From positions 1 to 64,000 of the forward strand of contig JAUCBJ010006805.1 in NCBI GenBank assembly GCA_032718475.1: DNA of 64,000 nt. Direction: 5' to 3'. Numbering within the stretch: position 1 is the first letter of the stretch; each line of letters begins with the position of its first letter. Shown one piece after another: positions 6,550 through 36,589 of the stretch. The notes beneath the pieces are model-generated. The model worked only from the letters and a program-made list of their open reading frames with translations, did not search any database and was not told where the DNA came from. The stretch is from Nemertoderma westbladi (lineage: Eukaryota > Animalia > Xenacoelomorpha). Made by a program: the position numbers and the translations under genes.

Positions 6550-7130
6550 AAGAGAATTTGAAATTTTCGAGTGACTATTTTTAAACATAAATAACTTCGG
6601 TTCTACAGAGCCGTTTAATCTGAAACTCTTTTCATTGGATAGAGGATAGATTGTCGTGTGTGAAATAGGATAAAACTTGGGAAAAGACTTATGTGCACTT
6701 AGTGCAAAATGCACTTAAATAGTGAACATTTTTTCGATATTTCAAACACTGTTATTTCCAGTTCTATTCATCGTAGAATGTTATTTTTTGGATTAAAATG
6801 TAGTTTGGAATGATTTCTAACTATAATCGTAACATTTGTTTAACTTTTTATGTCTATAAAGTGATTTAAAAATGTCCATGAATATGGTCCAAAATCGCAA
6901 ATCCAGATTTATTAAATTGGATTTTTGACACTTTTAGCGACTGACACTTGATCATACACCATCGTAGATCGGTAGAGGATAAACATAAGTTTGTTAAATA
7001 AGAGCCACCATTACGATCTGCTAAAGTGCATTTGTACAAATAAGTGTGCAAAAGTGCAAATTTTTTAATAAGGTCAAATTATATAGTATTGGGTTCTTTT
7101 CTTTGCAGATACTTTATTTTCATATTAATA

Positions 7131-7671
7131 TGTTAGCTTATTCAATCCCGCCAACACCCCATAAAGTTATAAGCCGATAAGCAATATTGGGAGCCACGAG
7201 ATTGGGCAATTAACCAACTCGTGCCATCCCAATAAGAGTGGGAAGGAAGCACACAATAGAGGGTCAGGGGCCAAACCCCTAACCCAGAGAGAACAGGTGG
7301 AGTGAACGGGAATACTCCACGGGGCGCCAACAAGGGTATTAACCAATCAGAGGGGGGAATGGCATCGATTGAGTAGCAGTAAGGCCACCGTGCAATATAA
7401 CCAATAACCTATTAATCAGTGATTCAGTTATCTCAGTGCAGCAGTGCTAGCGTAGGGTACAGTCAATTAGTTTAGTTAGGGGATCACGGGACTTTAGTTA
7501 CCGTATCCCGCCTTGTACACATTATACCTATATCTATATCCTATGTCCTATTATTATTATACACCGAACTTCAGAACTCAGTTACCTTTATTTCACCCTT
7601 ATACACGGCGGGGATGCGTGGACTAAATTACCACATCGGATAAATCGGGATCCCTCCTGGATCCCGTCACA
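7131..7671 (+). repeat. 5' LTR of element B
   Basis: Direct repeat of 18840-19380. CCAAT at 7343, TATAA at 7396, initiator-like TTCAGTT at 7423. Confidence 0.95.
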
Positions 7672-7751
7672 GTAACTAAATCCGAGCTGCCGCCCCAGTT
7701 AAACTCTGAGAACTACACTGCTTGCTAGTCGAACTCCACCGAGCAGACGAG

Positions 7752-10056
7752 ATGAGTGAATCGGGCGAGACACCGACGCGGACCCCGGACGAAGATCAAA
7801 CGATCTGCGAGGCCGCGACCAAGCGATACAGGCCCACGACGCCGGAGCCATCGATAACGGGCGAACCGGAAGTCCAGGACGAGGAGGGCCTGGAACCCGA
7901 AGTCGAGCCAAGAGAGAAAGAGAGCGAGATGGAGGGAGATGGAGACGAGTCGACACGAGAGGGAGAACGGCGCGCCGATGTCGCCGGCCAGCTACCGGCC
8001 GAGGGTGACGAGCGGCCCACCGAAACGGCGACGGTGGGGCCGACGGTGCGACGCCGGACGCGAAGAGACGGAGGAGAGATCGGTACCGATGTCGCCGGCC
8101 AGCTACAGGCCGAGGGCGACGGACGGCCCACCGGTACGACGTCGAACCCGGAGGGACGGAGGAGAGGTCGGCGACGAGGACGTCGGGGTTTCTGAGCGAC
8201 TTCGACGGGCCTACAACGCGACCCGGAAGCTGATAAACGACGCCAAGAAGGAAGGGGCGAAGGTAGACGAGGTGAGACTGAGAAAGCGACTAGGTGAGTC
8301 GGATAGACACTTAAATTACCTAATACGTTTTGGGCAGAGAGAACTGGCCGGGGAGAGAGCAGAAAGGATAGCCGGCGAATTGTTTGAACTATGGAAGTGT
8401 GGGAGTATGGAACCTAGTGTAGCGCCAGTGTACATAGGGCCATACTTGGTCGATGCCCGGGGAGTAAAACCAGTGGGTTGGAGGGGACTCGAAGGGGGCG
8501 AATCCGAGGTTAACCCCGAGGATTCGGCCTCGTCGGTCGGAGAAAGCTCCGGGAGGCCGGGGAAAGTTGGTAGGTCGGGAAGGCGGGGGAAGTCCGTCGT
8601 AACCGATAAGTCTGTTACATCCTCCGCGAAAGAAAGAGTGGTGAGAGAGATAGGTGCCGCATACCGCCTCGACGTGGCAGAGCAAGGTCAGAAGGAAATG
8701 GAGGAACGGCTAGAGGAGGGGAGAGCGCGGTTAGCGAGGGAAGCGGCATTGATTAAAGAGAACGGTGAGAGGGTAGAAAGGGCTTTGAGGAGCCTTAGGG
8801 AGAGTGACGAAATAGAGGAAAAGGAGTGTAGAGAGCGTGAGGCTAGGGAGGAAAGGGAACGCAGAGAGCGTGAGGCAAGGGAGGACGAGGAACGCGAGGA
8901 ACGTGAGACAAAAAGGGACGAGGAACGCGAGGAACGTGAGGCAAGAAGGGAAAAGGAACGCAAGGAATATGAGGCAAGAAGGGAAAAGGAACGCAAAGAA
9001 CGTGAGGCGAGATGAAGGGAGAGCGCTAGGAGTGTAGTAGAGTCGGCCAGACGGGACAGCCAGGAAAGTGAGGAGAGAGGGGCAAAGGCTGAGCGAGAGT
9101 TAAGGGAATTAGAGAAACGCCAAGGTGTATCGGCAAAAAATAAGATTAGACGGGCGCACGAGCTGGAATTGGTCCGAGTGTTGCCGTCTGAAAGCGGGGC
9201 CGGCTCGAGTATTTTTGAGGAGCCAGGAGCCGTAGACACGTTCATTAACACCCCACTGACAGGGACCGCACGACAGACCCAAAACTGGTGTAACCGTACG
9301 GGCGAGGGGGGTAATAATAATAATGGTACAGTAGACGTTGTTGATATTAATAGTACCGTATGGGATAACACTAATCAAACCTTTATTGCAGGAAATACTT
9401 TGCCTAGTGGTAGTAATTTAAATTTAAATCAGAACAATCCCAATACTAATGTAGAAAATAATCCTAATGTTGATGTAGTTACGCAAAATAATTCAAATAA
9501 TCAAAATAATAATCCGAATTCGGACCTACAAAATAACTTAAATAACGCAATTACACAGAATAATTCGAATAATTTAAATAATGATCTCAGCCCGAATTTA
9601 CAAAATAATTCAGATAACGTAGTCGCGCAGAATAATGCAAATGGTTTTGTTTCAAACGAGCAAATTGATTCCGTTTCTAATATGGGTGCTATTAATGTAA
9701 ACACGTCGGGCCTACATAACCAGGCGGAAGAGAGCCTGGTAGGCCACGTAGTTAGTAGACAGGGAGCAGAGGGCCTGGTAGGCCACGTAGTTAGTAGACA
9801 GGGAGCAGAGGGCCTGGTAGGCCACGTAGTTAGTAGACAGGGAGCAGAGGGCCTGGCAGGCCACGTAGTTGGTAGGCAGGGAGTAGAGGGTCTGGTAGGC
9901 CATGCAATAACAGAGGGAGAGGCGAGGGTGAACAGACCCGACTGTGATAGGGTTGATGTGTCGACTAGAGAGGTATATAATAGCGGGGAAAGAGGTAGCG
10001 AAGTTAGATGTAGCGAGTGGGGGGGGGGCTACGAGGGCCCCATAACAGAGAGTTAG
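7752..10056 (+). pseudogene. gag: N-terminal low-complexity/coiled-coil part of B gag (disrupted)
   Basis: ATG at 7752, apparent frameshift at ~8130, single in-frame TGA at 9013-9015. Contains an E/R-rich coiled coil, an Asn-rich tract and 39-bp repeats (GLVGHVVSRQGAE, ~9730-9903). Confidence 0.65.
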
Positions 10057-13000
10057 CGGCGAGAAGGGGGGGGCAGAGAGTGTCCCACAGCCGTCAGCAG
10101 ATAATGCGAGGGCCGAAATAGGTAAACCGCAACAACCAGCGACGGAAAGTAATAGGGGGATTACGAGTATCCCCAGCGACGTGCGACCGGGCAAGGAAAG
10201 ACAGGTTGACGTTGCGGGAGGGCGGACGAAGCGTCGAGCCCAATCAGAGGAGGAAAGAAGAACAGTGGGGTTTAACCGGGAGGTCGACGAGAGATCTCGC
10301 GAGCGGGAATATTCCACTGATACGAGAAGAAAGGAAGACAGTAGTAGAAGTATCGCCGCAAACGATAGAAGAGCGAGGACGGACAGCGAGCCGTCGGTAG
10401 TCGAGATGAGAACGGAGAGTCAGTGGGGTCGGACTCCGGGAGATTGCCGTCGCCCCGGAGAGATGCGACCCGGCGAGGCGCATTGCACGCCGAGAGAGGG
10501 GTACGCGATGTACCAGAACGAGGATGAGAACAGTAGAGAGGGGGGTCGGAGAGAAACTTTCCGACGGAATGTACCTACCGGACGAGATTACGGTAGCCGC
10601 AGGGAGGATTATTCGAGAAGAATAAACTTCGATCCCGAACAACACATGCAGACTGTAGGACATACTAGAGGCCTTACTGCACATACCGTAGGCCATACTG
10701 AGAGAGGCAATGTAGGCGATAGGATAGCGTGGACAACGGGATTAAACCCGGAAGTCGCGGAATACATACCGGCGGGTAGGCCAGAAGCTGATAGGCCTAT
10801 ACCGGTACCAGCACTGCAGTATGACTACAGCATGCAGGGACATAACATATACCCAGGGGAGGGGGGAATTATTGCGGATAGGTGCATGGGCCCCAACATA
10901 TTAACATCAACCCCAGTACCAGACATACCGGTGGGGGGGGGACAGGGTGACATTCCCCCATCACAATATCAACAATATACCCCGATGGTAGCAAGAACAA
11001 CGAGACCCTTGGACGAAAACAGATCGTGTGACACAGATATATGGAGGGGGCCGCTACCCCCAATGACATACCCAAGCCAGAGAAAGTCAAGAAATAGGAC
11101 AGACGGAACGCACCAGACAGGGGAAACTATACAGCACCCGTCGAATCCATTGGAAGCGCAGGCGATAGGGATGGCCACGTTGATCGATGCTTTGAAAACG
11201 AGGATCGAGTTACCACCCGTGGAACCATTCAAGTTCGACGGGAGTAGGCCGGAAGAATATTTACAATTTCGGCGAATGTATAGTAACGAAATACTAACAA
11301 AAAACTTGACGCAGGCGGAGTGCCTAAAGTATCTACAAGTGTACACGGGAGGCCCAGCATACGATATCGTGAGGCAATACCAAGGAATAGAGGGCGGCTT
11401 CACGACAGCATGGCGGGCACTGGATAGGGAATACGGGCACCCGGCCAAGATCATCAGGCAGACGCTGAGAGGCATAACATCGGGTGGCCTACAGGATAAC
11501 CCCGTTAGCATTAAGACGTTTGCTAACAAAGTCGAGAAGGCGCTGATCGTGCTGAAGACGCTAGACGCGCCATACGAGCTCAACGCATCCAATAACATCA
11601 CCACGATAGCGCAGGCACTACCGAGCTGGCTGCGCAACAAATGGAGGAAGATCGCTTTCTCCACTCGAGACAAGAAGGGTGCGGAACCGGGTTTAGAAGA
11701 AATGTCAAACTTCTTAAATTACGAGGCCGAACTAATAACGGACCCAGTCTATAGTGAAGACAGCCTGGGAAAGGGACCAAAGACAGACTACCATAGACCA
11801 AAACCAGAGCACAACACATCGAACGCGTTACCGAGACTCAGGCAATCATTGCCATATGCAGCGACGCAGGGGACTGCAAGTCCACAGACAAACGAAGATA
11901 AGACAACATCAAGGGACGGACAGGGGAACAATAACAACATGAATAAACATAACCCCAGTACGTCCAGTAGGCCAAACCCAGTCAATAAGAATAGTAGGGA
12001 CTTTGGTACGAATATAACTGCGATACGCAATGCATTGTATAAAGAGGGCTACGACCCAAAGAGCAAATGCCAGTTACACGCAAATGCGCTTCATAAAACC
12101 ATGAATTGCAGGTACTGGCAGGCGCTACCGAGGCAAGACCAGATAGATTACGCGTCGTGCAATAAAATCTGCTCGCGATGTGTGAAGAGTGGACACAAGG
12201 CCAGGGAATGCCAAGAGAAGCCGGTCAAGTTTGGCCAAAGGAGAGGCCAAACGATGGCAACGAGCACGGTAGGGGCGAAGAAAACAGGCACAGTGCTACT
12301 TGGAGTAGTACCAGTACGAGTGATCGGGGAAGGCAATCGATCAGTAACAACACTAATGCTGGTTGATAGTGGAGCTGCCTTCACATTAGTTGAGGAATGG
12401 GTAGCCGAAGAAATAGGGTTGAGAACGAGACCAAGCAGGATGGCGGTGACAACCATCTCTAGCAAAGACGAGATCCTAGAGATGAGGACAGGACGGTGCG
12501 CAATTGCAGCAGTGGCACCAGGATGCGATTATGGGGCAACCATCGACCCCATCCAAGTAATAGAGTCAATTAACATCAATGCCAGGCGGCCGACCAACAT
12601 CGAGGTCGAGCAATACAAATTCCTGGACAACATTGACTTCTCAATCCCAGACGTGGACGTTAGGAAGGTATCCATCATAGTAGGCATGGACTGCCCAACG
12701 GCCCACGAGAGAAAGCAAACGGTCTTCGGCGAAGACAAGCAGAGCGACCCGGTGGCCATATTAACACCATTCGGGTGGACACTGACAGGCCCAATTAAGA
12801 GTAATATACCATTCCATGTGTCCGAGAGTTCAGGATGCATGGTGCCAGGAACTGACGAGATAGAGGAGAGGCCAGAGATGGGCAATAGTGGTAGACAGCT
12901 AGAAGTAGAAGCAACACCAAGAGAGTGGGCGGAGGAGAATGGTATGGATGCAGAAGATCTAGAGACGATGGGTTGGAATAAGGGTCCCAGCAAGTATCGG

Positions 13001-13666
13001 TATGGAGATGGGGAGGAGCGGACGGTGGAGTGTCGGGAGGACAAACCGGAGAAGTGTCCGGTGGAGTGTCCAGAGGAGCGCCCGGAAGAGACGCCGGTCC
13101 GGTTGAGAGGCATACCGACAAGGGGGAAGCCGAGTAAGAATCCAAGATGGAAAGGGAGAAGATGTGAGACGATCAAACCAGGGGCAGAGAAGCCCATGAA
13201 TAAACATATGGTGGACAAAGGAGGCGGGAGAGTAGGAGGCGTGCTGCGTACGCACGCGGAACTGACAGAGTGCGAGGGGGCATTACATGGGCAGACATCG
13301 TGTATACCGAAGGACGAACGGGGGTCGTTGAAGCCTTTAATGCCAGCACACATATTAAGGGGGAGGCCAACAGAGGTGGCATCTAAGATTAAGGAGAAGA
13401 ACAGGGGCGGCATTATACCGCCGGGTGACACGTTGAAGGGTGGCACTTTGCCGCCAAGGGACGACCACGAGATCAGAAACATAAATAGAAGACAGCATTT
13501 CCAAAAACAGGAGAAAAGACCACCTATCGAATTGACAAGGAGAGCGGAGCGAAGAATTAGAGAACCTATAGGGGGGCAGTGGCAGAGTTGCCTGCTGGAG
13601 GAATCACCCCTTGGGTCGCTGAGTTGTCCAACAGGTTGGACTGGGATGGAAGAGTTAGATCCGTAA
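10046..13666 (+). CDS. BEL/Pao Gag core plus aspartic protease; RT, RNase H and integrase absent
   Basis: LPPVEPFKFDG..EEYLQF (DUF1759-type capsid region), CSRCVKSGHKAREC knuckle, LVDSGAAFTLV protease, AILTPFGWTLTGP. PLMPAHILRG resembles the end of BEL integrase. No YxDD motif. The frame is open from 10046. Confidence 0.88.
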   Translation, partial: QRVSGEKGGAESVPQPSADNARAEIGKPQQPATESNRGITSIPSDVRPGKERQVDVAGGRTKRRAQSEEERRTVGFNREVDERSREREYSTDTRRKEDSSRSIAANDRRARTDSEPSVVEMRTESQWGRTPGDCRRPGEMRPGEAHCTPREGYAMYQNEDENSREGGRRETFRRNVPTGRDYGSRREDYSRRINFDPEQHMQTVGHTRGLTAHTVGHTERGNVGDRIAWTTGLNPEVAEYIPAGRPEADRPIPVPALQYDYSMQGHNIYPGEGGIIADRCMGPNILTSTPVPDIPVGGGQGDIPPSQYQQYTPMVARTTRPLDENRSCDTDIWRGPLPPMTYPSQRKSRNRTDGTHQTGETIQHPSNPLEAQAIGMATLIDALKTRIELPPVEPFKFDGSRPEEYLQFRRMYSNEILTKNLTQAECLKYLQVYTGGPAYDIVRQYQGIEGGFTTAWRALDREYGHPAKIIRQTLRGITSGGLQDNPVSIKTFANKVEKALIVLKTLDAPYELNASNNITTIAQALPSWLRNKWRKIAFSTRDKKGAEPGLEEMSNFLNYEAELITDPVYSEDSLGKGPKTDYHRPKPEHNTSNALPRLRQSLPYAATQGTASPQTNEDKTTSRDGQGNNNNMNKHNPSTSSRPNPVNKNSRDFGTNITAIRNALYKEGYDPKSKCQLHANALHKTMNCRYWQALPRQDQIDYASCNKICSRCVKSGHKARECQEKPVKFGQRRGQTMATSTVGAKKTGTVLLGVVPVRVIGEGNRSVTTLMLVDSGAAFTLVEEWVAEEIGLRTRPSRMAVTTISSKDEILEMRTGRCAIAAVAPGCDYGATIDPIQVIESININARRPTNIEVEQYKFLDNIDFSIPDVDVRKVSIIVGMDCPTAHERKQTVFGEDKQSDPVAILTPFGWTLTGPIKSNIPFHVSESSGCMVPGTDEIEERPEMGNSGRQLEVEATPREWAEENGMDAEDLETMGWNKGPSKYRYGDGEERTVECREDKPEKCPVECPEERPEETPVRLRGIPTRGKPSKNPRWKGRRCETIKPGAEKPMNKHMVDKGGGRVGGVLRTHAELTECEGALHGQTSCIPKDERGSLKPLMPAHILRGRPTEVASKIKEKNRGGIIPPGDTLKGGTLPPRDDHEIRNINRRQHFQKQEKRPPIELTRRAERRIREPIGGQWQSCLLEESPLGSLSCPTGWTGMEELDP

Positions 13667-13821
13667 AAGGTGCGGGCAGAGGTGTTACCTGTCTTCTAGA
13701 AGGGGCACCTTAAATTGGAGTTAGAGTGGAGTTTAGTCGTCCAAGTTTTGGACTGAAGGGGGTGGGATTGAGGGCGAGACGCCCTTCCCACACAAATAAA
13801 ATAAAATAAAATAAAAATAAA

Positions 13822-15096
13822 AGTTAGTTAGTTAGTAGGTACGTAGTACCTAGAGTTAGTTAGTTAGTAGGTACATAGTACCTAGAGTTAGTTAGTTAGT
13901 AGGTACGTAGTACCTAGAGTTAGTTAGTTAGTAGGTACGTAGTACCTAGAGTTAGTTAGTTAGTAGGTACGTAGTACCTAGAGTTAGTTAGTTAGTAGGT
14001 ACGTAGTACCTAGAGTTAGTTAGTTAGTAGGTACGTAGTACCTAGAGTTAGTTAGTTAGTAGGTACGTAGTACCTAGAGTTAGTTAGTTAGTAGGTACGT
14101 AGTACCTAGAGTTAGTTAGTTAGTAGGTACGTAGTACCTAGAGTTAGTTAGTTAGTAGGTACGTAGTACCTAGAGTTAGTTAGTTAGTAGGTACGTAGTA
14201 CCTAGAGTTAGTTAGTTAGTAGGTACGTAGTACCTAGAGTTAGTTAGTTAGTTAGAGGGTACGTAGTACCGTTAGTTAGAGTTAGAGTTAGAGGGTACGT
14301 AGTACCGATAATTAGAGAGTTAGAGGGTACGTAGTACCAATAGTTAGTTAGAGTTAGAGGGTACGTAGTACCGATAGTTAGAGAGTTAGTAGGTACGTAG
14401 TACCTAGTTAGAGTTAGAGTTAGAGGGTACGTAGTACCGATAGTTAGAGAGTTAGAGGGTACGTAGTACCAATAGTTAGTTAGAGTTAGAGGGTACGTAG
14501 TACCGATAGTTAGAGAGTTAGTAGGTACGTAGTACCTAGTTAGAGTTAGAGGGTACGTAGTACCGATAGTTAGAGAGTTAGTAGGTACGTAGTACCTAGT
14601 TAGAGTTAGAGTTAGAGGGTACGTAGTACCAATAGTTAGTTAGAGTTAGAGGGTACGTAGTACCGATAGTTAGAGAGTTAGAGGGTACGTAGTACCAATA
14701 GTTAGTTAGAGTTAGAGGGTACGTAGTACCGATAGTTAGAGAGTTAGTAGGTACGTAGTACCTAGTTAGAGTTAGAGTTAGAGGGTACGTAGTACCGATA
14801 GTTAGAGAGTTAGAGGGTACGTAGTACCAATAGTTAGTTAGAGTTAGAGGGTACGTAGTACCGATAGTTAGAGAGTTAGTAGGTACGTAGTACCTAGTTA
14901 GAGTTAGAGGGTACGTAGTACCGATAGTTAGAGAGTTAGTAGGTACGTAGTACCTAGTTAGAGTTAGAGTTAGAGGGTACGTAGTACCAATAGTTAGTTA
15001 GAGTTAGTAGGTACGTAGTACCTAGTTAGAGTTAGAGTTAGTAGGTACGTGGTACCTAGTTAGAGTTAGAGTTAGGGGGTACGTAGTACCATTAGT
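13822..15096 (+). repeat. Tandem array of ~39 units (28-36 bp) with core GGTAC-GTA-GTACC and TTAG/TTAGAG linkers
   Basis: 13 near-identical 32-bp units followed by ~26 units in a higher-order pattern (hand count). Confidence 0.95.
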
Positions 15097-15594
15097 TAGA
15101 GAGAGAGAGTGAGAGATAAAAGGGGTAAATAGGATATAGATATTAGTTAGCAGTAAGTAGAGTTAGTAGCGAGAGGGGGGCATATGAGTACAGCTGGATA
15201 AATCGTGTGGCCACACGACGCATACTGCTGTACTGCATGGGCCCACAGAGTAGGCCAGAATATGGATCAGAGAATAGAATAAATCCATAGGCAGTAGTAG
15301 GTAGTAGGACAGTAGGATCAAAACAAACAAATAAATAGAATAGGGCTAAAAATCGAAAAATAGTGGCAACACAAGGAAAGTCGTTCTAGAACATAATAAA
15401 AGTAACGGACGGAAATTGTAAATTAGGCTGATTTACTAGCTCCGAAATTAATTAGGTTAAATTAAGCTTGAAAGGCGCAATTAAGTAGAAAGTAGGCCAT
15501 TATCGAACTGTACGAAACATCTTAAATACTTCACTCATCTGTATTGCGCCTTGGTAAGGCACCACCCTGCAGGTGAGCGAGTGTAGTGTTCGGA

Positions 15595-16998
15595 ATGGCG
15601 AGTAAGCTGATCAGGAAGAGAAAGGCGGAGTCAGGAGGAAAAGAAATATTGGTGGATTTCACCGAAAGACACCCGGAAGAGAAGACAAGAGGATACTACG
15701 AGCGGTTGGAAAGGGGTCACGCGGCACGAGCGCTGCAGGATCACTTCCGGGAGGCGCACGGACAGCGGTTGGTCGGGACCTACGGGACCCCGTCACTAGA
15801 CAACGCGATCTTCCAACACTTCCACTACGTGGTGAAAGGGGACGAAGCGAAGTTCGGGATTCCGAAATATCCGAGGGAATCACCGAGGAAGGACTGGAAA
15901 AGATTCATAGAGTCCGTCAACAGAGGAGGATATATGATCCTAGATGACGAGGGAACCGTGGAGGACGAAGCGGGTTCGAGACGAGGAACGGCAGGGTCGG
16001 CCAGGACCATACTCCTACATTTGGCCGCGCCGAATGGGGACATCTTCTTATTCGACCTAGGGACGTATAGGAAGAAGGACGGGCCGAAATTAGACCGGTT
16101 GCCGAAAGCGGTACAAGTCTTAGTAAGAGAGAAGTCGACGACGAAAGTGGGATCGGCGATTCGCGAGGACGCGGAGAGGATCATCGGTCCGGACGCCACC
16201 AACCTCCTGGATATGCAGAAAGTCTTTATGGCTATGACGGCACCGGATGGATTGGGGGTGGTCGAGAACTCAGGCCAATGCGGGGCGGTGGCGATGGGCC
16301 AATTATTGGGGCTCGTATGCCACAAACCAATGGATTGGGGGAAGTTTAGGGAAGAATACGGAGCAGAACTAGCGAACTCGCTGAAGTGGGGAGCGAGACC
16401 GGGAAAGCAGGAGGTATATCAGTTTCGCAGAGGAGCGATAAAGGTATATCAGAAGCGATATATCCTGCAGGAGGACTGGATGATGATAAGTTTGCTTAAC
16501 TTATTCATGACCGTAGTTATCGAAAGGGAACCAGGGGCATTTCTGTTATCGGGATCACCCCTAAGCTACAGGAGAGCCTTTAAAGTGGCCTTTGACGGTC
16601 TGGCAGACCACCCGGGGCTGAAGGGCGAGTCGGTGTACTACAACAGCCGACATCTGGTAGACGGGGAGACAGATACACCGTATCAGAGATGGGAGCAGCT
16701 AGAGGCGGACAGACGAGAAGCAAAGCGACTGGAAGAAGTCGCTAGACGGGAGAGGATAGAAGCAGAGGAGAGGGAAGAGGAGGCCAGGGCACAGAGTTAC
16801 GGCTTCGGGGAGCAGGCGGGCCTAGACGAACTTCATTGGACTTCGTCAGGGAGTTCGGGGGAGTCTCTAGGGCGAGAATTGGGATGGACGGTGGGATCGC
16901 CGAAACAGTCGACGTCGGGGTTGCAAACGATGCCCATACCAGCGGGCGCCGAGGGCGACCAACCGCCAAGGAAGTTAAGGGAGCTAGAGGGATGGTGA
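15595..16998 (+). CDS. DnaQ-like DEDDy 3'-5' exonuclease domain protein (WRN-exo/EXD/RNase D-like) carried by element B
   Basis: ExoI-like ILDDEG; LLHLAAPNGDIFLFDL; LPKAVQVLVREKSTTKVGSAIRED (ExoII-like); LLDMQ; QLLGLVCHKP; YQKRYILQED (ExoIII-like). Confidence 0.7.
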   Translation: MASKLIRKRKAESGGKEILVDFTERHPEEKTRGYYERLERGHAARALQDHFREAHGQRLVGTYGTPSLDNAIFQHFHYVVKGDEAKFGIPKYPRESPRKDWKRFIESVNRGGYMILDDEGTVEDEAGSRRGTAGSARTILLHLAAPNGDIFLFDLGTYRKKDGPKLDRLPKAVQVLVREKSTTKVGSAIREDAERIIGPDATNLLDMQKVFMAMTAPDGLGVVENSGQCGAVAMGQLLGLVCHKPMDWGKFREEYGAELANSLKWGARPGKQEVYQFRRGAIKVYQKRYILQEDWMMISLLNLFMTVVIEREPGAFLLSGSPLSYRRAFKVAFDGLADHPGLKGESVYYNSRHLVDGETDTPYQRWEQLEADRREAKRLEEVARRERIEAEEREEEARAQSYGFGEQAGLDELHWTSSGSSGESLGRELGWTVGSPKQSTSGLQTMPIPAGAEGDQPPRKLRELEGW

Positions 16999-18129
16999 GC
17001 TACGGGCGAGAGCCAAGGTGGGAAGGGACATAGTGGATCCATCGGGATACCGGGATTGGAGACACTACCGGAAGAGGAGGACGACGACGACGAATTCGGA
17101 GAGATGCCGCCCATCGAGAGGATAGGCCACTCGGACACGGACTGGGTTGGCGGAAGGGTGGTGACGGCCAGTGGGGCGAGGGCCTTCTGGAACAGATCCG
17201 GCAAGCGGACCTGGGTGCACGAGGAGCCGGTGATGGATTTCGCGGGGAGCACCATCAGGTTGGGCGAGCAACCGGGGACGGCACCACGGATAGTATTCGG
17301 GGAGACGATGCCCGAGAGGGGCGGAGAGATCGACGTAAACAGGGAGAGCAACGTAGAGAAGTTCGCCTACCAGCGACTCCATAGACCGCGGAGATCGCTT
17401 GGGACGAAGGACGAGGTGGGACGGGAGACATTGGTACTCGGCTGCGACTACTGTGGGAGACAGACCCATCGGGAAAGCAGCTGCCTGTACCGGTTCCAAC
17501 GGGGAACCTTTTGTCTCTACTGTAGAGAACCAAGTCACAGGATGGGGGCGTGTCCACGGTTGCATAACCGATGTCCAAAGTGCCACTTTCGGGGGCACTA
17601 CGGACGCGAGTGCGACTGGATGAGCGACGAGGAGAAGTTCACGAGGTTCGAGGAGTGGGCCGACGTCGGGGCCATGACGCGCCAGCGCATGAAGGCCCAA
17701 GAGTTCAAGTGGGGTTTCTTCCTTATAAACCAGGAGACCCACATGGAAATCATAAAGCGAAGGTTACCGTTTACCTATCAAGAGGTAGCTACGGCGGCAT
17801 CGTTCGCCGGAGTTATAAACACGCAACGGTACCTGGACAGGTGGACACCAGAGAACCTGAGGGAGTTTAGGGATTTCTTGGCGGAACACGTACCAAAGGC
17901 AATGAAAATGATCCTATGGGACGCCACACGAGGGAGACAACCAGGCCATTCTGAGGGGCCACCGGCGAAGCGGTATCGGGCTTTAATAACACCAGCGCCC
18001 AAGGAGCCGACAACCGGGATCAGCAAGGAAGTGGCAGCGAAGGTCCGGAAGCAGAAAGCGGATGATGCCAGAGGAGCGGTGATAACCAAGAAACGGGCCA
18101 GGGAAGAGGACGTGAGGAGGTACAGATGA
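16999..18129 (+). CDS. Triple CCHC zinc-knuckle protein; same frame as the exonuclease ORF, separated by one TGA
   Basis: CDYCGRQTHRESSC, CLYCREPSHRMGAC, CPKCHFRGHYGREC, followed by a basic NLS-like C-terminus (PPAKRYR, KKRAR). Confidence 0.8.
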   Translation, partial: ATGESQGGKGHSGSIGIPGLETLPEEEDDDDEFGEMPPIERIGHSDTDWVGGRVVTASGARAFWNRSGKRTWVHEEPVMDFAGSTIRLGEQPGTAPRIVFGETMPERGGEIDVNRESNVEKFAYQRLHRPRRSLGTKDEVGRETLVLGCDYCGRQTHRESSCLYRFQRGTFCLYCREPSHRMGACPRLHNRCPKCHFRGHYGRECDWMSDEEKFTRFEEWADVGAMTRQRMKAQEFKWGFFLINQETHMEIIKRRLPFTYQEVATAASFAGVINTQRYLDRWTPENLREFRDFLAEHVPKAMKMILWDATRGRQPGHSEGPPAKRYRALITPAPKEPTTGISKEVAAKVRKQKADDARGAVITKKRAREEDVRRYR

Positions 18130-18801
18130 GTTCCCGGAGACGAGGGAATGAGACTGAGACTGGGAAGTGGTGCGCCTGGAAGGCGCCGCATGTAACGCAC
18201 GAACTATTAAGTATAAATTTAATTAATGCAAATAATCATATAAGTGCAATTTGTATGTACGTACGTAGTGATTAGCAGTAAAATACATACGTTTGGAGTA
18301 AGTACTATAGTCATACAACCTTTCTCAACTAGCTAGTGGGACTGGGGGGAATAACTGACTATGGCACTATGGACGAGACAACTGACAATTTCACACTTCT
18401 CGAGTGCGACGGCACGAGAGGGGGGGAGGTTCGTCAGGAGAGATAAAACAGTCAAAGTGGAGTTGAGGATCGGAATAAGAGTGCGAAGTGCGGAGAGAGT
18501 GCGAACGCAATTCTAGTGTGGGGGGGGGGAGAATGAGAGGCTGAGTAAGGGACGAGGAGGTCCGGGGGTATGAGAAAGTTAGGGTGAGAGTGAAGGTGAG
18601 ATAGGGCGAAAATGTTGGGGAAACAAAGGTCGTGTGAAGAGGTGAGCGCGATCGGCCCGACATGAGACGCCAGGCACACAGGGTAGCGTTATCATACCCA
18701 TAGGGGGCGGCCTGGAAAGCCGGCTCCTAGAGAAAAGAATTCCACCCCACACCCGATATTAGATCGGGATCCAGCGGGATTGTAACGCACTTTTTTGGTT
18801 G

Positions 18802-18839
18802 ATGCTATCTTCTTACCGGGAAGATAGCATGGGGGGGAG
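18802..18839 (+). other. 11-bp hairpin followed by the polypurine tract of element B
   Basis: ATGCTATCTTC-N7-GAAGATAGCAT, then GGGGGGGAG abutting the 3' LTR. Confidence 0.85.
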
Positions 18840-19380
18840 TGTTAGCTTATTCAATCCCGCCAACACCCCATAAAGTTATAAGCCGATAAGCAATATTGGG
18901 AGCCACGAGATTGGGCAATTAACCAACTCGTGCCATCCCAATAAGAGTGGGAAGGAAGCACACAATAGAGGGTCAGGGGCCAAACCCCTAACCCAGAGAG
19001 AACAGGTGGAGTGAACGGGAATACTCCACGGGGCGCCAACAAGGGTATTAACCAATCAGAGGGGGGAATGGCATCGATTGAGTAGCAGTAAGGCCACCGT
19101 GCAATATAACCAATAACCTATTAATCAGTGATTCAGTTATCTCAGTGCAGCAGTGCTAGCGTAGGGTACAGTCAATTAGTTTAGTTAGGGGATCACGGGA
19201 CTTTAGTTACCGTATCCCGCCTTGTACACATTATACCTATATCTATATCCTATGTCCTATTATTATTATACACCGAACTTCAGAACTCAGTTACCTTTAT
19301 TTCACCCTTATACACGGCGGGGACGCGTGGACTAAATTACCACATCGGATAAATCGGGATCCCTCCTGGATCCCGTCACA
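18840..19380 (+). repeat. 3' LTR of element B
   Basis: Direct repeat of 7131-7671. Confidence 0.95.
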
Positions 19381-20308
19381 TAATATGTTGTTTGAACCTT
19401 ACTGAGCGCATTAGGGAATATGCGTACAAATAACCGGCCCTTATGAGGCTTCGATTGGGTAAATTAATAAAACATAAGGTTGTATAGTATAATATTCTAA
19501 AAACCAGTGTGATATTAAATGCACTTTAAATAATAAATAGAAATCAAATAACAATTGGACCACACAATTAAAAACTCGCACAATTTTGTACTTATTATAT
19601 CGCTTCAAATTAATTTAACAGTGGATATTTGTGGGAAGGGGGAAGTTACAGTGTGCATTCGGGGGAAGTTTGGTGAACTGCATTTATGCAGTGAATCCAA
19701 ACTTCCCCCTTTGATATATCATATACTTAAGACATGCTAGGGTGACGGGAAAATATTTGTTACTGTCACACTTTGCTTCCATTTATCCTATCCTTTATTA
19801 TTACCCCAGTCAGATAAGAGATAATAAATCAGTAAAAACTAAACTAAACTGTCTTTCATGCAAACAAATTTCTAACTAAAGACGGGTGAATGACCATGAC
19901 CAAGAAATAATTTTAAATATAATTGTATATCAACTATTTGGGGAGGCTTCCAAGTTAAACCCGAAAACAATTATTTTGTTACATATCTAGTAAATAACGT
20001 TGTATGTTCTTCTTCCTCTCATAATAAAATATATATGAAATATCTCTGATCGCTGTGCCCTGAACATTTCACAACCAAAATGTTTCAGTGTGAAAAGTGT
20101 AGGCCTACCACACCCCGCCCAAACAGCCGCAAACGCATAGCCAACAAATTTATCAAAAGTTTACATACATGTTGTGTTCATGACGAGATGAGTGAAAATT
20201 GATCGCGTAATATAAACTAAAAAATTGAGAGTCGGGCCTGGCTCTTCTCCACTTTCTTACCCAATGGAAATGTTGTTGTTATAATCTAACATTGGGGCGG
20301 CTTTCTCT

Positions 20309-21934
20309 CGGTCTTTCTGACTGTTCATTGGCTAACCCAGACAAGGATCAAAGACACGACTTTAGTGTAAATCTATTAATCGGTTCAGACTTCTATTGGG
20401 ACATTGTAACAGGAAAGACATTCCGTTGTTGGTTGGCTACTTTCTGGGAAAGTGCAACAAAGTTACGAGTTCTCAAATTATGACAACAATTTGCAAGACA
20501 ACACGTGTATGCTAATCAGTTCCACTTGTCAGAAGCTGAAAACGACAATTTTCAAGACATACTCAAAGGCTTTTGGGCAGTAGAAAGTTTGGGTAACGAG
20601 CAAATGGAAAGTGATGACACGTTTATACCAGTTCTAAACATAATGTTTAAAAGTAACGGACATTATTCTGTAAGTTTGCCTTGGAAATTAAATCCGACAA
20701 ATTTGACTGACCATTATTCATTGTGTTATAAACAATTATACTCTTTAATCCGCCGTTTACAAAAAACTGGTTTGCTTGTAAAATACGACAGTGTAATCCG
20801 GGATCATATAGCAAAGGGGTATATTGAACCAGTAAGTTGTGATCAAACGGGTTCAGTAATTCATTACATTCCCCATCATGGTGTAGTACGGGAGGAACGG
20901 GAATCCACTAAGCTTAGGGTGGTATTCAATGCCTCAGCACGCGCACATTGCAAAGATATATCATTAAATGAATGCCTTTTAAAAGGACCAAATCTCATCC
21001 CACATTTATTAGATGTGTTACTAGGTTTTAGGGATAAACGAATAGCTATAACAGCAGATATTGAACGGGCATTCTTACAATGCGAAATTAATGATTCTGA
21101 CAGGGATTGCCTTCGATTTCTGTGGGTACCATCATTAGATAATATCAATATAGATAATTTAGTTATTCAAGGGTACAGGTACACACGAGCTCTGTTTGGA
21201 TTGATATGCTCACCAAAAATACTTGCAGAGACTTTATCTCATCATCTAGAATTGGAAAAGAAGAAAACTGTAACCAGTCTCAACTGGTTACTGTCAAGAA
21301 GTTACAGAAGTTGTATGTAGACGACTTAGGAACAGGAGTAAATACCGTAGAGGAAGGAGTACAATTCATGAAAGAGGCCTGCTCAATCATGAAATCAGGT
21401 GGATTTAACATACGTAGAAGGGTTTCTAACTCATTACAATTACAGACAGAATTTGATAAAGAAACACTCAACAAATGTAACCAAGTTTTGGACATAACAA
21501 AATTTCAGGAGGAAGATCAGACATACGCAAAGTCTTCTCTGTACCTGCCGCTGGTTCAACCAGCCCAGGTGAAACGAATCTTAGGACAATGCTGGCATGT
21601 GGAAAACGACACATTTGGGTTTGACGTGACGTCAGTATACGACTATGTAAAATTGTTACCCAAGAATAAAAGAGCAGTGTTACAGTTATCAGCACGCCTA
21701 TATGACCCATTGGGCGCTCTGATACCATTCACAAGCCAAATGAAAGCCGAATTCCAAACATTATGTAAAACAACAAAAAATTGGAATGAACCACTTTCGT
21801 TGGCTTTAATTGAAAAATGGCAAAGATGGGTTGACAGTTTATTATCCCTCAATAAAATTTCATTTCCGAGATGCGTGTTTAACAAAACAAATACTATTAA
21901 AGATTTTGAATTGCATGGTTTTTCAGATGCCAGC
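20309..21934 (+). pseudogene. pol: Host BEL/Pao element C pol: reverse transcriptase and start of RNase H (frameshifted, truncated)
   Basis: HYIPHHGVVREERESTKLRVVFNASA, SLNECLLKGPNL, ADIERAFLQ, LYVDD, RLYDPLG, LHGFSDAS. Frameshifts at ~20430 and ~21260. Confidence 0.92.
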
Positions 21935-22947
21935 AGTAGTAGAGGAAGAGGGTCCCCCCACCCACTCCTCCCTAGCTTGGGCTTTGGGCGATATCTCGGA
22001 GGACTATTAAAAATGCCAAATTCCGGTGCTAAATTGCGGTGTTTAATTGGCCAGTTGCCACCATCAGTATTGATTCGCGTCGTTGCCATCAACCAATCAT
22101 CGATATTCACCTACGCGTAGCCTAACCTCGCGATGCCCGCCTTACTCGACAGCTGTTACCACCCATCAGTATTGATTCGCGTCGTTGCATCAACCAATCG
22201 TTGCATATTCATCTTCGCGTAACCTAATTTCACGATGCATGGCTAGCCCCCACATACCCAACCCATCGCTACTCGACTGCTGTTACCAACCAACTAACCA
22301 ACCAAACAACCAACCAACTGCCATGCTTGCCTAGCCCTCCGGTTACTCCCCTTTTCCCCACGCTACCGCATACTGTATACGATGACAACGATAGAGTCAG
22401 TCACGGAGGACGTGGCTGTTCGCGCTTTCAGACCTTTGGCAGTTTAACCCACCAAATTAAGATGTCTTCTAGATATTAAATCAGTTTTTAGTCTATGACA
22501 AGTATTAGATTCACTACACTAGTCGAAACCAATCCGTGCGCGACCATTCACCCGCTGGATATTCCCGGGAGATTGGGTTCGACGGTTTAATTTTATTGCT
22601 ATGTAAGCCTAATGTATTATTCGACTGACAGTATTATATAATCTCTGACAATATTATTTACCTTCGGGAATATTAACAGTTCCTTTAGGACGTGGCACTT
22701 TATCTACATAAACAGAGTTATGACTTAAACTACTCACAACGATATGGCTTAATTATAATTCACATATATGGCGCATTCTTTAGGAATGCTTCTTTAACAG
22801 ACTCACTCATACACAATGCTGCACAATACTGCACACTAATCTACCGATCTTCACTGATTTTAGTCACATATAAAAGGAACACAGACTGACTCATGTAGGG
22901 TCTATCAAATAACATTAGATTCACTTCAAACCACTTTAACATAAGTC

Positions 22948-24544
22948 TACTACTACTACTACTAGGATCGGCATGCTGCATTGCAGCTGCATTTTTAAGA
23001 ATGCTGTGCCGGCTTGTCAACAAAATTGCACCGCCACAACTCCCTATCACCCATGACATTTGCTAGATCATCCGCATCTTTAAGGCCAGTGTCCATTAAT
23101 ATGCGTCTCAAGAAAGTCATGGGCTGTCCACTATGCTTATTCACTCCATGAGGCTGCCAAAGTACAAGATTATGCACTGGCTGGTCCTCACGGCGAAAGC
23201 AATGTCCTGCAAAGCGGAGGCGATTTTGTTCTAGTGTCAAGCTTGGGGAAACCAATGAGACACCTCCAATGTTATATAGTGTCTGGTTGGAGATGTGTGC
23301 ATTGTACTTGACACAATGAACCCGGCGTAGCATTCTTGTGAATGTGCCATCCAGAGATTTGGTGTCCTCAGCAGTTAGAGCCCAGCATGGACTCCCGTAG
23401 AGGAGTACTGGAACTACTGCTGCTCTAAATAATCGGACCTTAAGTTTCCGATTAATTCTCGGTGACTTCCAAATCCTGGAAAGCCTATTCAAGGCTGCCC
23501 ATGCCTTTCCCTTACGTATTCGAAGGTCCTCACCTGACTTCCGGATCCATGATCCCAGGTAACAGAAGTCGTCGACATGCTCAAGCATACCATCCTTTGA
23601 GCTTATGCTCATCCGATCAGAGACTTGCTGAGGACTTTCAAAGTTAACTGTCAGAATTTTGGTCTTTCTGGAGTTAATAAAAAGACCAACACTAGAAGCA
23701 GCATGTTCTAATGAGCTGAGGAGCCGTTGGGCTCCCTCTAATGATTCTGAGAGTACTCCTAAGTCATCAGCAAAGTCTAGATCAGTTAGGTACTTGGCAG
23801 GATTTCCTCGACTTCTGGAGCCAGTAGGTGGAGTTATCATCACCCCATCATCATTATGATGATCTAAGGACATGCGTAGAACATAGTCAACCACAATAAT
23901 GAATAAGAATGGTGCAAGTGTGTCTCCTTGGAGGACGCCCCATAACACTTCGAATGGTTCTGTGTCACCGTCAACAGTAGACACAAATGTTGTCGAACCA
24001 TCGTATACTGATCTGATTGCTGCAATAATTTCATCAGGAATCCCATATAATGAAAGTATGCTGAACATACGTGAGCGAGAGACTGAATCAAAGGCCTTGA
24101 AGAAGTCAACAAAGATAACAGCCAGATGCCTGTCTTTCTTTTTTGATAATTCTTCAATTATCCTTCTAAGTGCCAAAATGGGCTCCATGGTCCCACGACC
24201 TTTACGGAACCCATTCTGATTTCCACGGAGCAGTCTCTCAATGGGATCCCTGATGCGATTTAATAGAATCCTATTGTATAGCTTTGCAGCAATTGAGATC
24301 AATGAGATTCCCCGAAAAGAACCATAGAGTGTTAGGTTGCCCTTCTTGGGAACTGGCACCAACTTATTTGTTTTCATTTCTTGTGGGACTCTTGTTGTAC
24401 GGTACATGTCTACTATGATGGGATAGATAAGCTTTAAACACTCAGGTATTTTAAAGACCTCAGGGGGAACACCATCTACTCCACTGGCACGATTGGTCTT
24501 AATGCTCTTTGCAGCAGCCTTCACTTCTGCAAAGGAGATATAAG
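22948..24544 (-). mobile_element. 5'-truncated RTE-clade non-LTR retrotransposon (family 1)
   Basis: 11-bp TSD TAACATAAGTC at 22937-22947 and 24545-24555. (TAG)n 3' tail. RT ORF present. Confidence 0.93.
22995..24539 (-). CDS. RTE reverse transcriptase (partial, open frame)
   Basis: KASGVDG-like motif, QNGFRKGRGT, FVDFFKAFDSV, GVLQGDTLAPFLF, LDFADD, FCYLGS, RLRFAGHCFR. Confidence 0.92.
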   Translation of the reverse strand: MSFAEVKAAAKSIKTNRASGVDGVPPEVFKIPECLKLIYPIIVDMYRTTRVPQEMKTNKLVPVPKKGNLTLYGSFRGISLISIAAKLYNRILLNRIRDPIERLLRGNQNGFRKGRGTMEPILALRRIIEELSKKKDRHLAVIFVDFFKAFDSVSRSRMFSILSLYGIPDEIIAAIRSVYDGSTTFVSTVDGDTEPFEVLWGVLQGDTLAPFLFIIVVDYVLRMSLDHHNDDGVMITPPTGSRSRGNPAKYLTDLDFADDLGVLSESLEGAQRLLSSLEHAASSVGLFINSRKTKILTVNFESPQQVSDRMSISSKDGMLEHVDDFCYLGSWIRKSGEDLRIRKGKAWAALNRLSRIWKSPRINRKLKVRLFRAAVVPVLLYGSPCWALTAEDTKSLDGTFTRMLRRVHCVKYNAHISNQTLYNIGGVSLVSPSLTLEQNRLRFAGHCFRREDQPVHNLVLWQPHGVNKHSGQPMTFLRRILMDTGLKDADDLANVMGDRELWRCNFVDKPAQHS

Positions 24545-25239
24545 TAACATAAGTCACAATCGTTTATCTTTAACCTTTCTCTCTTACCTTCGGTATATCA
24601 AGAATATTGGGTGTCGGGGTTATTTCTCGTTATTCCAATATAATAATTCATCAACAAATATAATGAATAACCGACAACAAATAGCAGTATAAAACAACAA
24701 CTGAACACTGATTGTTATGAGTTTGCAATGTTTCAGCAGTCAGTATGTATGATTAGTTAGCAGTGATTCCATGAGTTAAAGGATATATGCCCTTTATAAT
24801 TAAACCTACTAGTGTAAGACTAAAAACTAAAACACGGAGGTGCCAAAGCCGGTTCTTAGGCTCTGGGCAAAAACATAACACTGAACTACTGAGTTTCTGT
24901 ATATACCTCCAACACAAAGACAACAAACGCTCTGATTGGTCAACCTGAACAACGAGAGAACAGAGAAACAAAGAAACGTCGACGTGGCAATATCAGCTGC
25001 TAGCTGTCGTCATGGTAGCGACACTGTTTTCAAGAGTATCGAGCTTTTACGTCACGGAATTACGGATTATGTCCTCTAAAGTACAAATACAGAAGAAATA
25101 GCTCTTATGTCCGCTAAAACACCAGTACAGCAAGGACACGGCCTTTTTATGCCTGGTAAACCAACTACAGAGTACTTTACGGGAAAAATAAGGAAAAATA
25201 ACCGGACAATTCAGTAAAAGCTTTTACACCGCTCCCAGA

Positions 25240-26591
25240 AAATGGGATTTTCAGTCTATAAAATATAAAAATCACAGTTTCTAAAACATAAAGATACTCT
25301 AAACAGTTAGTCTTTCTTACGCAGACGGCGTTTACGCAGTTTTTTGAGGCTAGCAAGAGTCTTTTTCTCTTTGGGGGGAGCCACTTTACTAGGAGGGCCA
25401 TAACTCCTGGGTGAAGGGTGCAATATGATTGCATCAGAAGGTGTAGGTTTATGGTCGAGGTATCTGCTGTTTCGATATGCTTCTCCTCGAGCTGATTTTC
25501 CTCCGCTCGTAGCTGGATACGTTCATCCAAAACTCTCGCAGAGAATAGGATCGTCCAAGTTCGATAACTTCTTAGAGATTCTGGATTTCCCAATCGAATT
25601 GAGATAAGGCCAATTCGTTTATCGATAGGACTTACTGTTATAACTTACGTTTATCTGAACAAACGCAGGTTTCTTTTTTGATCTTTATAGAATAGCGTTT
25701 AACTCGTTTCGTACAACGCTCTCCTTTACCTTGATGAGGGGTTGTATCGCGTTAAACGGGGACGACCATACGGTTGGATAGTGATATTAGGTGTCCGCGT
25801 CACAATCCGGCTAGGTAAGATGGGCGGCTAGCTAGAAATCACTGGCGGAGTGTTACCGATTAATTGTTAGGGTAGCACTAGATCTTTGAACAGTGAATAC
25901 AGTCCGCGAGGATCCGCGACACCACCAGGATCGCAGGTCTGAGGTCCAACTAAGGAATGAGGAGGTTTGACCGAGTATTCCGGGACTCTGATCGTAGGTT
26001 TACTCCAGGATCGTTCGAGCCGAGTGAGCATAGGTGATACGTCAACAAGTTTCGGTTTACGTGGATGTTTATGTCTTTCCGTTTATTAGTTGGGTCTAGG
26101 GCATTTATCGTAATAATACCAAAGACGCACGTCTGGTAGGGTAAACGCGGGCGACATCCACCTGTTGTTACAATGCTTCTATCAAGAATTCCAAATATAC
26201 GTTGGAGTTACCGCGTTTATTTGTTTCTTTAGTGTCTTTTCTTTCGAGTCGATTTCGAATAGAATTTTCGCATTCGAATTTCAGTTTATGGTTCCGACTC
26301 CGCTGGGCAGGATATATAGTCGACATAGTCCGTATTGTGTAAATTGATAGAATGACCAGTAGTTAAGAAGCCCATATACGTACCATTACGCTGCGTATAT
26401 CGAGCAGCGAATTTTCTATAGTCCAACTCTCGCGAGAGCTGCACTTGGGACATTGTCGGTTCGATATAACGACCATCGTCCTCCGCAGCAGTTGGACTAA
26501 CGTCGCCGCGTATTAAGCTATCAACAAACGCTTGTAAAAGTAGAGTATATCGCTCCCCGATACCAAGACCATCTTCTATCAACTCCGTCAT
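25240..26591 (-). pseudogene. Cluster of short accessory ORFs or exons of unknown function in the 3' region of A2 (degenerate)
   Basis: Homologous to 62511-64000 (RELDYRKF.ARYT.RNGTYM.FLTTGH; RLWYY...CPRP; RVPEYSV.PPHSLV). Stop codons fall at equivalent positions in both copies. Confidence 0.6.
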
Positions 26592-35672: not shown

Positions 35673-35965
35673 GTGGCCATCTACGCGCACCATGCATATA
35701 CCACGCCGTTATATTATATTATATCGTTTGCCAACTCATCGATTTACGCAGAACCCAATAATTTTCAATTGTACTGTATTTCCCTACCAACTAATCAACC
35801 AACCAATAAACCGAATTTAGGCTATTTCTCAGTTTAAGACCTGTATTATTTTTGAAAATATCTTATATATAATCTCTTGCTTTAATCACAATTAATCATT
35901 TATAATGGTTTTAGTTTAAAAGTTTTTACTTTGTTTGTTTGATTTACAATACAATAAATTAAATA

Positions 35966-36409: not shown

Positions 36410-36589
36410 CTTTTCCCCCTATATTATAAATATTTTATGATTATTTTTAAAATTTTGATCTTTTTAATTATGAAAAAAAATCAAATTTTAAATAATCGAA
36501 AATTGTAGTAGTATTTGTATATACAGTATATCAGATTTGTTTGTTGTGTATTGAGGTAATTATTTTCAATTTACTTTAAAATTTGGAAA

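Follow-up and report, generated by a model that had tools for sequence, protein, structure and literature searches.

A predicted DEDDy-fold exonuclease gene with three CCHC zinc knuckles in a BEL/Pao element of Nemertoderma westbladi

Introduction

What is a gene with the features of a 3'-5' exonuclease doing in the place where a retrotransposon might carry an env-like gene? This question is raised by a stretch of 64,000 nucleotides (nt) from the xenacoelomorph Nemertoderma westbladi (GenBank assembly GCA_032718475.1, contig JAUCBJ010006805.1, positions 1 to 64,000 of the forward strand; hereafter, the window). Here, a long terminal repeat (LTR) retrotransposon of BEL/Pao type carries, downstream of its gag-protease frame, a third open reading frame (ORF3). 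An initial annotation of the same DNA read ORF3 as a DEDDy exonuclease followed by three zinc knuckles, and suggested that it could (i) create a self-primer; (ii) proofread for reverse transcriptase (RT); or (iii) antagonise silencing by PIWI-interacting RNAs (piRNAs).

The analysis reported here supports the reading of ORF3 as an accessory gene that combines a DEDDy fold with three CCHC knuckles and belongs to an LTR element of BEL/Pao type. With such a gene, BEL/Pao would join the Gypsy-like and Penelope-like elements of bdelloids as a carrier of DEDDy accessory genes. The architecture is new, in that a long linker joins the exonuclease to the three knuckles, and the element dropped pol yet kept the exonuclease gene nearly whole. 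In general terms, this points to retroelements having recruited RNA 3' trimmers repeatedly. Furthermore, the element also looks self-priming and, in consequence, offers a concrete substrate for testing the long-proposed role in 3' processing.

A long coding frame in the env position

ORF3 extends in one frame from the ATG at 15595 to the TGA that ends at 18129 (844 codons), interrupted only by a TGA at codon 468, practically as first annotated (about 845 codons and one TGA); its position between the two LTRs, where env would be expected, was also borne out. The coding frame is real: the longest open frame in 1000 base shuffles of the region had 315 codons, none of them (0/1000) reached 376, and the other two forward frames over the same stretch contain 49 and 15 stops. 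The N-half consists of the exonuclease-fold domain, a charged helix and a low-complexity linker.

Judging from the sequence, the internal stop is most simply explained as a lesion of this copy, as in its gag region; its likeliest effect is the loss of the knuckles from the product, with the nuclease domain intact. Two other explanations were considered and set aside: (i) removal of the TGA by splicing through the donor-like site at 16995, for which there is no good downstream acceptor, the frame being open right after the stop; and (ii) programmed read-through, the base after the stop being a G, which is not known as a leaky context.

ORF3 would be expressed separately, from a spliced or internally started message with the ATG at 15595. 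A subgenomic message of this kind would need an acceptor before the ATG, and the CAG/G at 15572 is a candidate: 28 of the 45 bases before it are pyrimidines (tied for the highest value in 13700-18839), and the site lies outside the top 13 of the 619 YAG sites. Two splice-donor-like sites had been proposed just upstream of ORF3 and both GT-containing sites do exist (15554 and 15573), but their reading as donors is weak because GTRAG is common in the element (28 in 12 kb), and the site at about 15572 can be read as an acceptor with no less reason than as a donor. The three AATAAA signals found at 13795-13816, after the gag-protease frame and before the tandem array, would also allow for an internal promoter.

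Evidence for a DEDDy fold

The N-half of ORF3 very probably contains a DEDDy/DnaQ-fold exonuclease domain. In the ESM Atlas, the best scores were 0.94-0.95, the higher value coming from unnamed clusters and the lower one from clusters in which 34% of the members bear PF01612; by the tool's own account, about 1 in 100 shuffled proteins attains 0.95. Of the matches, 24 of 30 fell in PF01612-bearing clusters, with 174 of 256 features in common. Five home-made profiles were built from 40 bacterial PF01612 domains: (i) full (40 domains); (ii) mixed (26 DEDDy domains); (iii) WRN-like; (iv) NrnC-only; and (v) RNase D-only. With the mixed profile, the domain reached 13.7 bits, the best of 1000 shuffles reaching 6.4, and it ranked first among 642 six-frame chunks. 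With both the mixed and the full profiles it scored above all 1000 shuffles and was first of the 126 window ORFs; its score with the WRN-like profile was reached by 1/1000 shuffles. Likewise, HHalign with the mixed profile gave 33.1 versus a maximum of 20.3 in 100 shuffles.

An AlphaFold model guided by an alignment of 33 exonuclease domains reached a predicted local distance difference test (pLDDT) value of 75 and a predicted template modelling score of 0.75. When this model was searched with Foldseek, 21 of the 21 matches listed at E<=0.001 were of DEDDy type, including EXD2 and the RNase D of Trypanosoma brucei, with structural Z-scores of up to 12.9 (a partly circular result).

Regarding the catalytic residues, those of ExoI (D117 at 15943 and E119 at 15949, at the end of strand 1) and ExoII (D192 at 16168) align consistently with those of DEDDy enzymes in profiles, HHalign and MAFFT. 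In the MAFFT alignment, W265, Q286 and Y289 (16459) fall on invariant columns, and ExoIII takes the form Y289-x3-E293, with D294 adjoining (16471-16476), after a 12-residue insertion. Thus, of the three motifs annotated, ExoI and ExoII hold, whereas ExoIII is not canonical (Glu in place of Asp, or a placement on non-catalytic residues).

The N-half had been assigned to WRN/EXD/Mut-7-type nucleases; the DEDDy fold of this assignment is upheld by profiles, HHalign and Atlas, but not the subfamily label. Sequence and model comparisons do not allow any DEDDy subfamily to be named, since the best single-group hidden Markov model is the WRN-like one (1/1000 shuffles, against 118 and 120), the best of these in HHalign is the RNase D profile (20.1 versus 14.1), and the structural Z-scores for RNase D, WRN, EXD1, Nibbler, NrnC and PolA are close together (11.3-12.9). 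No HRDC domain was matched by Pfam after the exonuclease, but the exonuclease itself also escapes Pfam.

Zinc knuckles and similar published proteins

The three zinc knuckles announced for the C-half are all present as exact CX2CX4HX4C motifs, and the 12 zinc ligands are intact. Knuckle-type motifs (3 or 4 residues before the His) occur only seven times in the six frames of the window. Atlas matches of the knuckle region to zf-CCHC clusters scored below 0.9, which makes them a lead only.

The T. brucei RNase D (TbRND, PDB 7c42) is likewise a DEDDy exonuclease with CCHC fingers in tandem after it; these four fingers raise RNA binding and cleavage (PMC7797062, in part). TbRND is among the top fold matches of the guided model (Z 12.4, root-mean-square deviation 3.5, 181 aligned residues, 18% identity). 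Nevertheless, TbRND is a cellular mitochondrial protein with four fingers and a linker of about 30 residues (PMC7797062, in part), whereas ORF3 has three knuckles located beyond a stop. According to the model comparison, the likeness appears to be one of shared fold, with no sign of homology beyond it.

Among retroelements, the closest precedent is that of the LTR elements Juno and Vesta of bdelloid rotifers, which carry a DEDDy ORF3 that was acquired at least twice and is shared with Athena/Terminon (Rodriguez, Kenefick, Arkhipova 2017, PMC5408684, in part). The accessible text of that paper (i) presents the activity of these proteins as undemonstrated, with proposed roles in 3'-end processing and silencing; (ii) reports the change of one Asp to Glu (DEED), read as possibly active; (iii) finds no unambiguous link to copy number; (iv) mentions DEDD derivatives that are inactive but still bind RNA; and (v) describes the variation of env-like and GDSL ORF3s within the genome as apparently neutral. 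Juno, Vesta and the element described here have in common a separate ORF, its env position, an RNase D-like DEDDy domain and the replacement of one Asp by Glu. By contrast, the Juno and Vesta carriers have a complete pol and form their own clades outside BEL/Pao, the word Pao occurring in that text only within the name of an author, while the carrier here is a BEL/Pao element without pol; the changed residue is that of DEED in the former and the last Asp in the latter; and no triple CCHC array is described for Juno and Vesta in the accessible text, this comparison being one of descriptions, not of sequences (PMC5408684, in part). Mobile elements with DEDD exonuclease accessory domains are also found among the DNA transposons Dada and KolobokD, but there the domain, which in KolobokD is of DEDDh type, is proposed to act on DNA ends (PMC3706591 and PMC9587614, both in part).

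The novelty implied for an exonuclease in an LTR element was hence overstated, as the DEDDy ORF3s of Juno and Vesta are already in print (PMC5408684, in part). New here are the occurrence in BEL/Pao, the lack of RT in the carrier and the array of three knuckles, which is reminiscent of the trypanosome RNase D. A literature search, to which older nematode papers and Repbase were external, brought up no publication that describes an ORF of exonuclease type for BEL/Pao, and the word exonuclease is absent from the Belpaoviridae profile (PMC8742986) of the International Committee on Taxonomy of Viruses (ICTV) and from the accessible part of a BEL/Pao survey (PMC3118150).

A recent BEL/Pao element without pol

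The features of the element, which measures 12.25 kb, are collected in Table 1. Its two LTRs, delimited by self-comparison, differ at only one of 541 bp, and the sequence TAATA is duplicated at both flanks. Together with the polypurine tract that precedes the 3' LTR, these features indicate that the insertion is recent.

Table 1. Features of the element and of ORF3 (window positions; a slash in a motif marks a potential splice point; LTR, long terminal repeat; aa, amino acids).
Feature	Position	Strand	Details	Basis
Target-site duplication, left	7126..7130	+	5 bp	Self-comparison
5' LTR	7131..7671	+	541 bp, TG...CA	
Candidate self-primer segment	7493..7501	+	Exact complement of first 9 post-LTR bases	
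Primer-binding-site position	7672..7680	+	No TGG start; pairs with own LTR	
5' low-complexity part of gag region	7752..10056	+	Three pieces (frame changes, stop 9013-9015)	
Gag-protease frame	10046..13666	+	1206 aa	Pfam
Tandem array	13822..15101	+	32-34-bp unit, about 39 copies, 1.3 kb; between gag-protease and ORF3	
Pyrimidine-rich stretch, candidate splice acceptor	15508..15580	+	Ends CAG/G at 15572; overlaps donor-like sites 15554, 15573	
ORF3, N-half	15595..16998	+	467 aa; ATG with G(-3)/G(+4) context	
Predicted DEDDy/DnaQ-fold domain	15865..16524	+	aa 91-310	ESM Atlas, profiles, guided AlphaFold
In-frame TGA of ORF3	16996..16998	+	Codon 468; overlaps weak donor-like G/GTGAGC at 16995	
ORF3, C-half	16999..18129	+	376 codons, same frame; first ATG 17104	
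Three CX2CX4HX4C zinc knuckles	17443..17613	+	17443-17484, 17512-17553, 17572-17613 (aa 617-630, 640-653, 660-673)	
Polypurine tract	18831..18839	+	Adjoins 3' LTR	
3' LTR	18840..19380	+		
Target-site duplication, right	19381..19385	+	5 bp	

The 5' LTR contains CCAAT at 7343, TATAA at 7396 and initiator (Inr)-like TCAGT at 7416-7433, a set that we take to be its promoter. The gag-protease frame includes a DUF1759 domain (aa 397-535, E 8e-11), a zinc knuckle at 12170 and an aspartyl protease (aa 756-812, E 3e-5), while Pfam found no family at cut-off in the preceding low-complexity part of the gag region. We take a DUF1759-type gag with knuckle and aspartyl protease to be a mark of BEL/Pao. Both this combination and the LTRs, target duplication and polypurine tract typical of the group were found; pol and an 18-nt primer-binding site (PBS) complementary to tRNA-Arg or tRNA-Gly, which is the kind assigned by the ICTV to Belpaoviridae, a family with metazoan hosts (PMC8742986), were not. 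More broadly, the element resembles Belpaoviridae and BEL/Pao elements in its DUF1759-type gag, aspartyl protease, polypurine tract and the position of its third gene, and its TG...CA LTRs fit the family range of 0.2-1.2 kb; it differs from them in its length, in the lack of RT, RNase H and integrase, in the lack of a tRNA-type PBS, and in a third gene that is exonuclease-like, not env-like (PMC8742986; PMC3118150, in part).

Twelve frame translations, spanning the interior of the element apart from the tandem array, gave no match to RT, RNase H or integrase. The element is therefore a non-autonomous derivative without pol, most likely copied in trans, and the absence of pol makes an RT phylogeny impossible. 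No tRNA or Rfam family was found within the element.

The end of the gag-protease frame (12900-13720) holds short stretches without Pfam match, as if pol had been lost while the frame stayed open; in our judgement, they presumably echo BEL/Pao pol and integrase-tail motifs. In addition, the 1.3-kb tandem array has a palindromic GGTACGTAGTACC core.

A possible RNA exonuclease and its alternatives

The best reading of these data is that ORF3 is the third, accessory gene of a recent RT-less BEL/Pao element and encodes a knuckle-assisted DEDDy-fold 3'-5' RNA exonuclease, a reading that might equally well prove right or wrong. According to it, the three zinc knuckles would grip single-stranded RNA and the exonuclease would shorten RNA from the 3' end, its likeliest target being the transcript of the element itself; RNA is the presumed substrate by analogy with the trypanosome RNase D and its CCHC fingers. 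The protein would be translated from the separate message considered above, the element would be mobilised in trans by an autonomous partner, and this particular copy would most likely make the nuclease domain without the knuckles. That active trimming of element RNA is the main job of ORF3 is a tentative and somewhat doubtful proposal.

The following points weigh against the RNA exonuclease reading: (i) the domain has no direct sequence match in Pfam, NCBIfam, PHROGs or PDB; (ii) the NrnC-only and RNase D-only profiles fail to separate it from shuffles (120/1000 and 118/1000, respectively); (iii) the significant local alignment spans only ExoI-ExoII and ends near aa 216; (iv) the guided AlphaFold input consisted of 33 exonucleases, so the fold matches are partly circular, while the unguided single-sequence model (pLDDT 34) and its fold search were uninformative, and hence the AlphaFold check for a DnaQ fold, as initially suggested, agrees in its guided form and failed in its unguided one; (v) the reference proteins carry Asp in 33/33 cases where ORF3 has E293; (vi) global HHalign puts the ExoIII motif on non-catalytic residues; (vii) six of the nine invariant columns are matched, but 10/100 shuffles do as well, a reason to reject this count as evidence; (viii) about 300 residues separate the knuckles and the domain, versus about 30 in TbRND; and (ix) there is a single ORF3 copy, with an internal stop, in an element with a broken gag region.

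Since the last catalytic Asp is either Glu or absent, activity is uncertain, and the enzyme may be weak or dead, with an ExoIII that is YxxxE or missing. Even a dead domain could, jointly with the charged helix and the knuckles, bind the element RNA as an adaptor for its transport or packaging, in the manner of EXD1 or Egalitarian. Both proteins appear among the fold matches, and inactive DEDD derivatives that keep RNA binding are known (PMC5408684, in part); however, D117, E119, D192 and Y289 are kept in ORF3, the acidic E293 and D294 stand at the last site, and rotifer ORF3s with Asp changed to Glu are read as possibly active (PMC5408684, in part). Such an adaptor is, on the whole, quite unlikely.

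A different target for the nuclease, also unlikely, would be the host's defence: the protein would degrade or sequester host small RNAs or their precursors and, in this way, counter piRNA silencing. The fold is common to Nibbler/Mut-7 and EXD1, a silencing-related role is discussed for the rotifer proteins (PMC5408684, in part), and the keeping of the gene by an RT-less element suggests a benefit beyond replication chemistry. Nevertheless, neither Mut-7 nor EXD1 stands out in the structural ranking, and the rotifer ORF3 is not unambiguously tied to copy number (PMC5408684, in part). As for proofreading, the remaining suggestion of the initial annotation, it is weak and was set aside, for no RT was matched in the 12 frame translations of the element.

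Relatives and origin of ORF3

The protein and contig collections searched are mostly microbial, with few animal repeats, and their blanks say little about animal genomes. Within them, (i) 0 matches at E<=0.001 were obtained among 1.84 billion representatives; (ii) queries with the N-half, with the read-through frame and with the domain by itself revealed no relative in a set of 5.8 billion proteins; (iii) no match was obtained for the domain in metagenome and viral contigs, nor for the gag-protease frame in metagenome contigs; (iv) plasmids and phages yielded no relative, with one chance match at E 2; and (v) an exact look-up gave 0/6. Capture from a giant virus was discarded, given that viral matches were no closer than cellular ones (best, 20% identity).

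As a fresh host capture should still match cellular exonucleases, the lack of any detectable relative suggests long residence in a fast-evolving element lineage. ORF3 is probably, then, an old, lineage-borne accessory gene rather than a recent acquisition. It is very unlikely that it is a neutral passenger, functionless at present, whether a fragment picked up by capture or what is left of a gene in a lineage that has died out. Such a passenger would fit with the single copy, the internal stop, the broken gag region, the missing pol and the empty searches of mostly microbial collections, and rotifer env-like and GDSL ORF3s set a precedent for apparently neutral variation (PMC5408684, in part). 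But one stop in 844 codons, compared to 15 and 49 in the other frames, argues otherwise, and the motifs and the 12 zinc ligands have been kept despite a divergence beyond detection, which would not be expected of a fresh host capture.

Nematode Cer elements have extra downstream ORFs, and springtail Daidara elements carry accessory ORFs.

Probable self-priming and a second element

The nine bases that follow the 5' LTR are the exact complement of the LTR segment 7493-7501; of 6000 internal 9-mers, 12 have a complement anywhere in the LTR. As in Tf1, the PBS finds its complement in the LTR of the same element, and the match keeps register with the LTR end. The PBS-LTR region folds with this 9-nt pairing (z -1.9; 3/200 shuffles as good), although the energy of the PBS duplex is ordinary (86/300 shuffles as good). 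The lone LTR mismatch (7615/19324) sits in a predicted stem beside the PBS pairing, and the pair is kept in the 5' copy.

These observations bear on the possibility, raised initially, that trimming of the element RNA by the exonuclease stops at the LTR segment paired with the PBS and leaves a 3'-OH for reverse transcription. The segment lies about 70 nt downstream of the TATA/Inr-like set and not, as in Tf1, at the 5' end, and its use as a primer would call for a precise 3' end. Exonucleases of this type stall at duplexes, and stalling would provide such an end. In Tf1, on the other hand, the primer is the mRNA 5' end and is reportedly released by RNase H (PMC4600332, in part). Tf1/Tj1 and the element described here share a PBS complementary to their own LTR, but the segment here appears internal to the repeat (R) region, the superfamily is another, and no RNase H was matched (PMC4600332, in part). 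Moreover, the accessible text of PMC5408684 does not present the bdelloid carriers of a DEDDy ORF3 as self-priming.

A further comparison is offered within the window by a second gag-protease element, hereafter family A (22417-35672, minus strand), which has 1204-bp LTRs, a 5-bp target duplication, and DUF1759 gag and protease frames; no RT was matched in its long ORFs. Its 3' LTR is split by an insertion with a RT of long interspersed nuclear element type (22948-24563), and its 3' region contains broken frames of unassigned kind, 78% like 62920-64000. Family A has an exact 12-nt PBS-LTR match in the same register (5/300) and, as had been anticipated, no visible equivalent of the exonuclease: the profile gave no signal for it in 642 six-frame chunks.

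In both families, a set of CCAAT, TATA-like and TCAGT motifs precedes the segment complementary to the PBS by 70-100 nt (7343-7501 in the former; LTR positions 290-453 in family A), which suggests that the putative primer is internal to R, unlike that of Tf1. Because family A pairs with its own LTR and shows no exonuclease signal, self-priming is likely a property of these BEL/Pao elements that does not require the exonuclease in cis. The exonuclease may be supplied in trans, in view of the fact that both elements lack RT and depend on partners.

In any case, a role of the exonuclease in priming, as deduced from the two sequences, is possible but not supported: the pairing of the PBS with its own LTR stands, while the link to trimming is weakened by family A and by the use of RNase H in Tf1 (PMC4600332, in part). 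Self-primer maturation is consequently an unlikely explanation of ORF3. An improbable extension of the same idea is that a self-priming BEL/Pao lineage recruited a knuckle-guided 3'-5' exonuclease which would trim element RNA to the PBS-paired segment, with neither a tRNA nor an RNase H cut, and which would be kept by RT-less elements and supplied in trans.

Other features of the window

Beyond the two elements, related sequences include a Pao-type pol fragment at 20484-22120 (Peptidase_A17, E 1e-21), outside the element that carries ORF3, and a related gag-protease-like piece at 4377-5078. The segments 35237-42061 and 42095-48919 form a 6.8-kb tandem duplication whose copies are 99.9% identical; each unit contains a 211-aa P-loop ATPase frame with a weak Pox_A32 match (E 0.002), and the duplication is possibly Polinton-like, or else a duplication of the assembly. 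Finally, a protein kinase exon-like frame at 53854-54522 (Pkinase, E 1e-28) probably belongs to a host gene.

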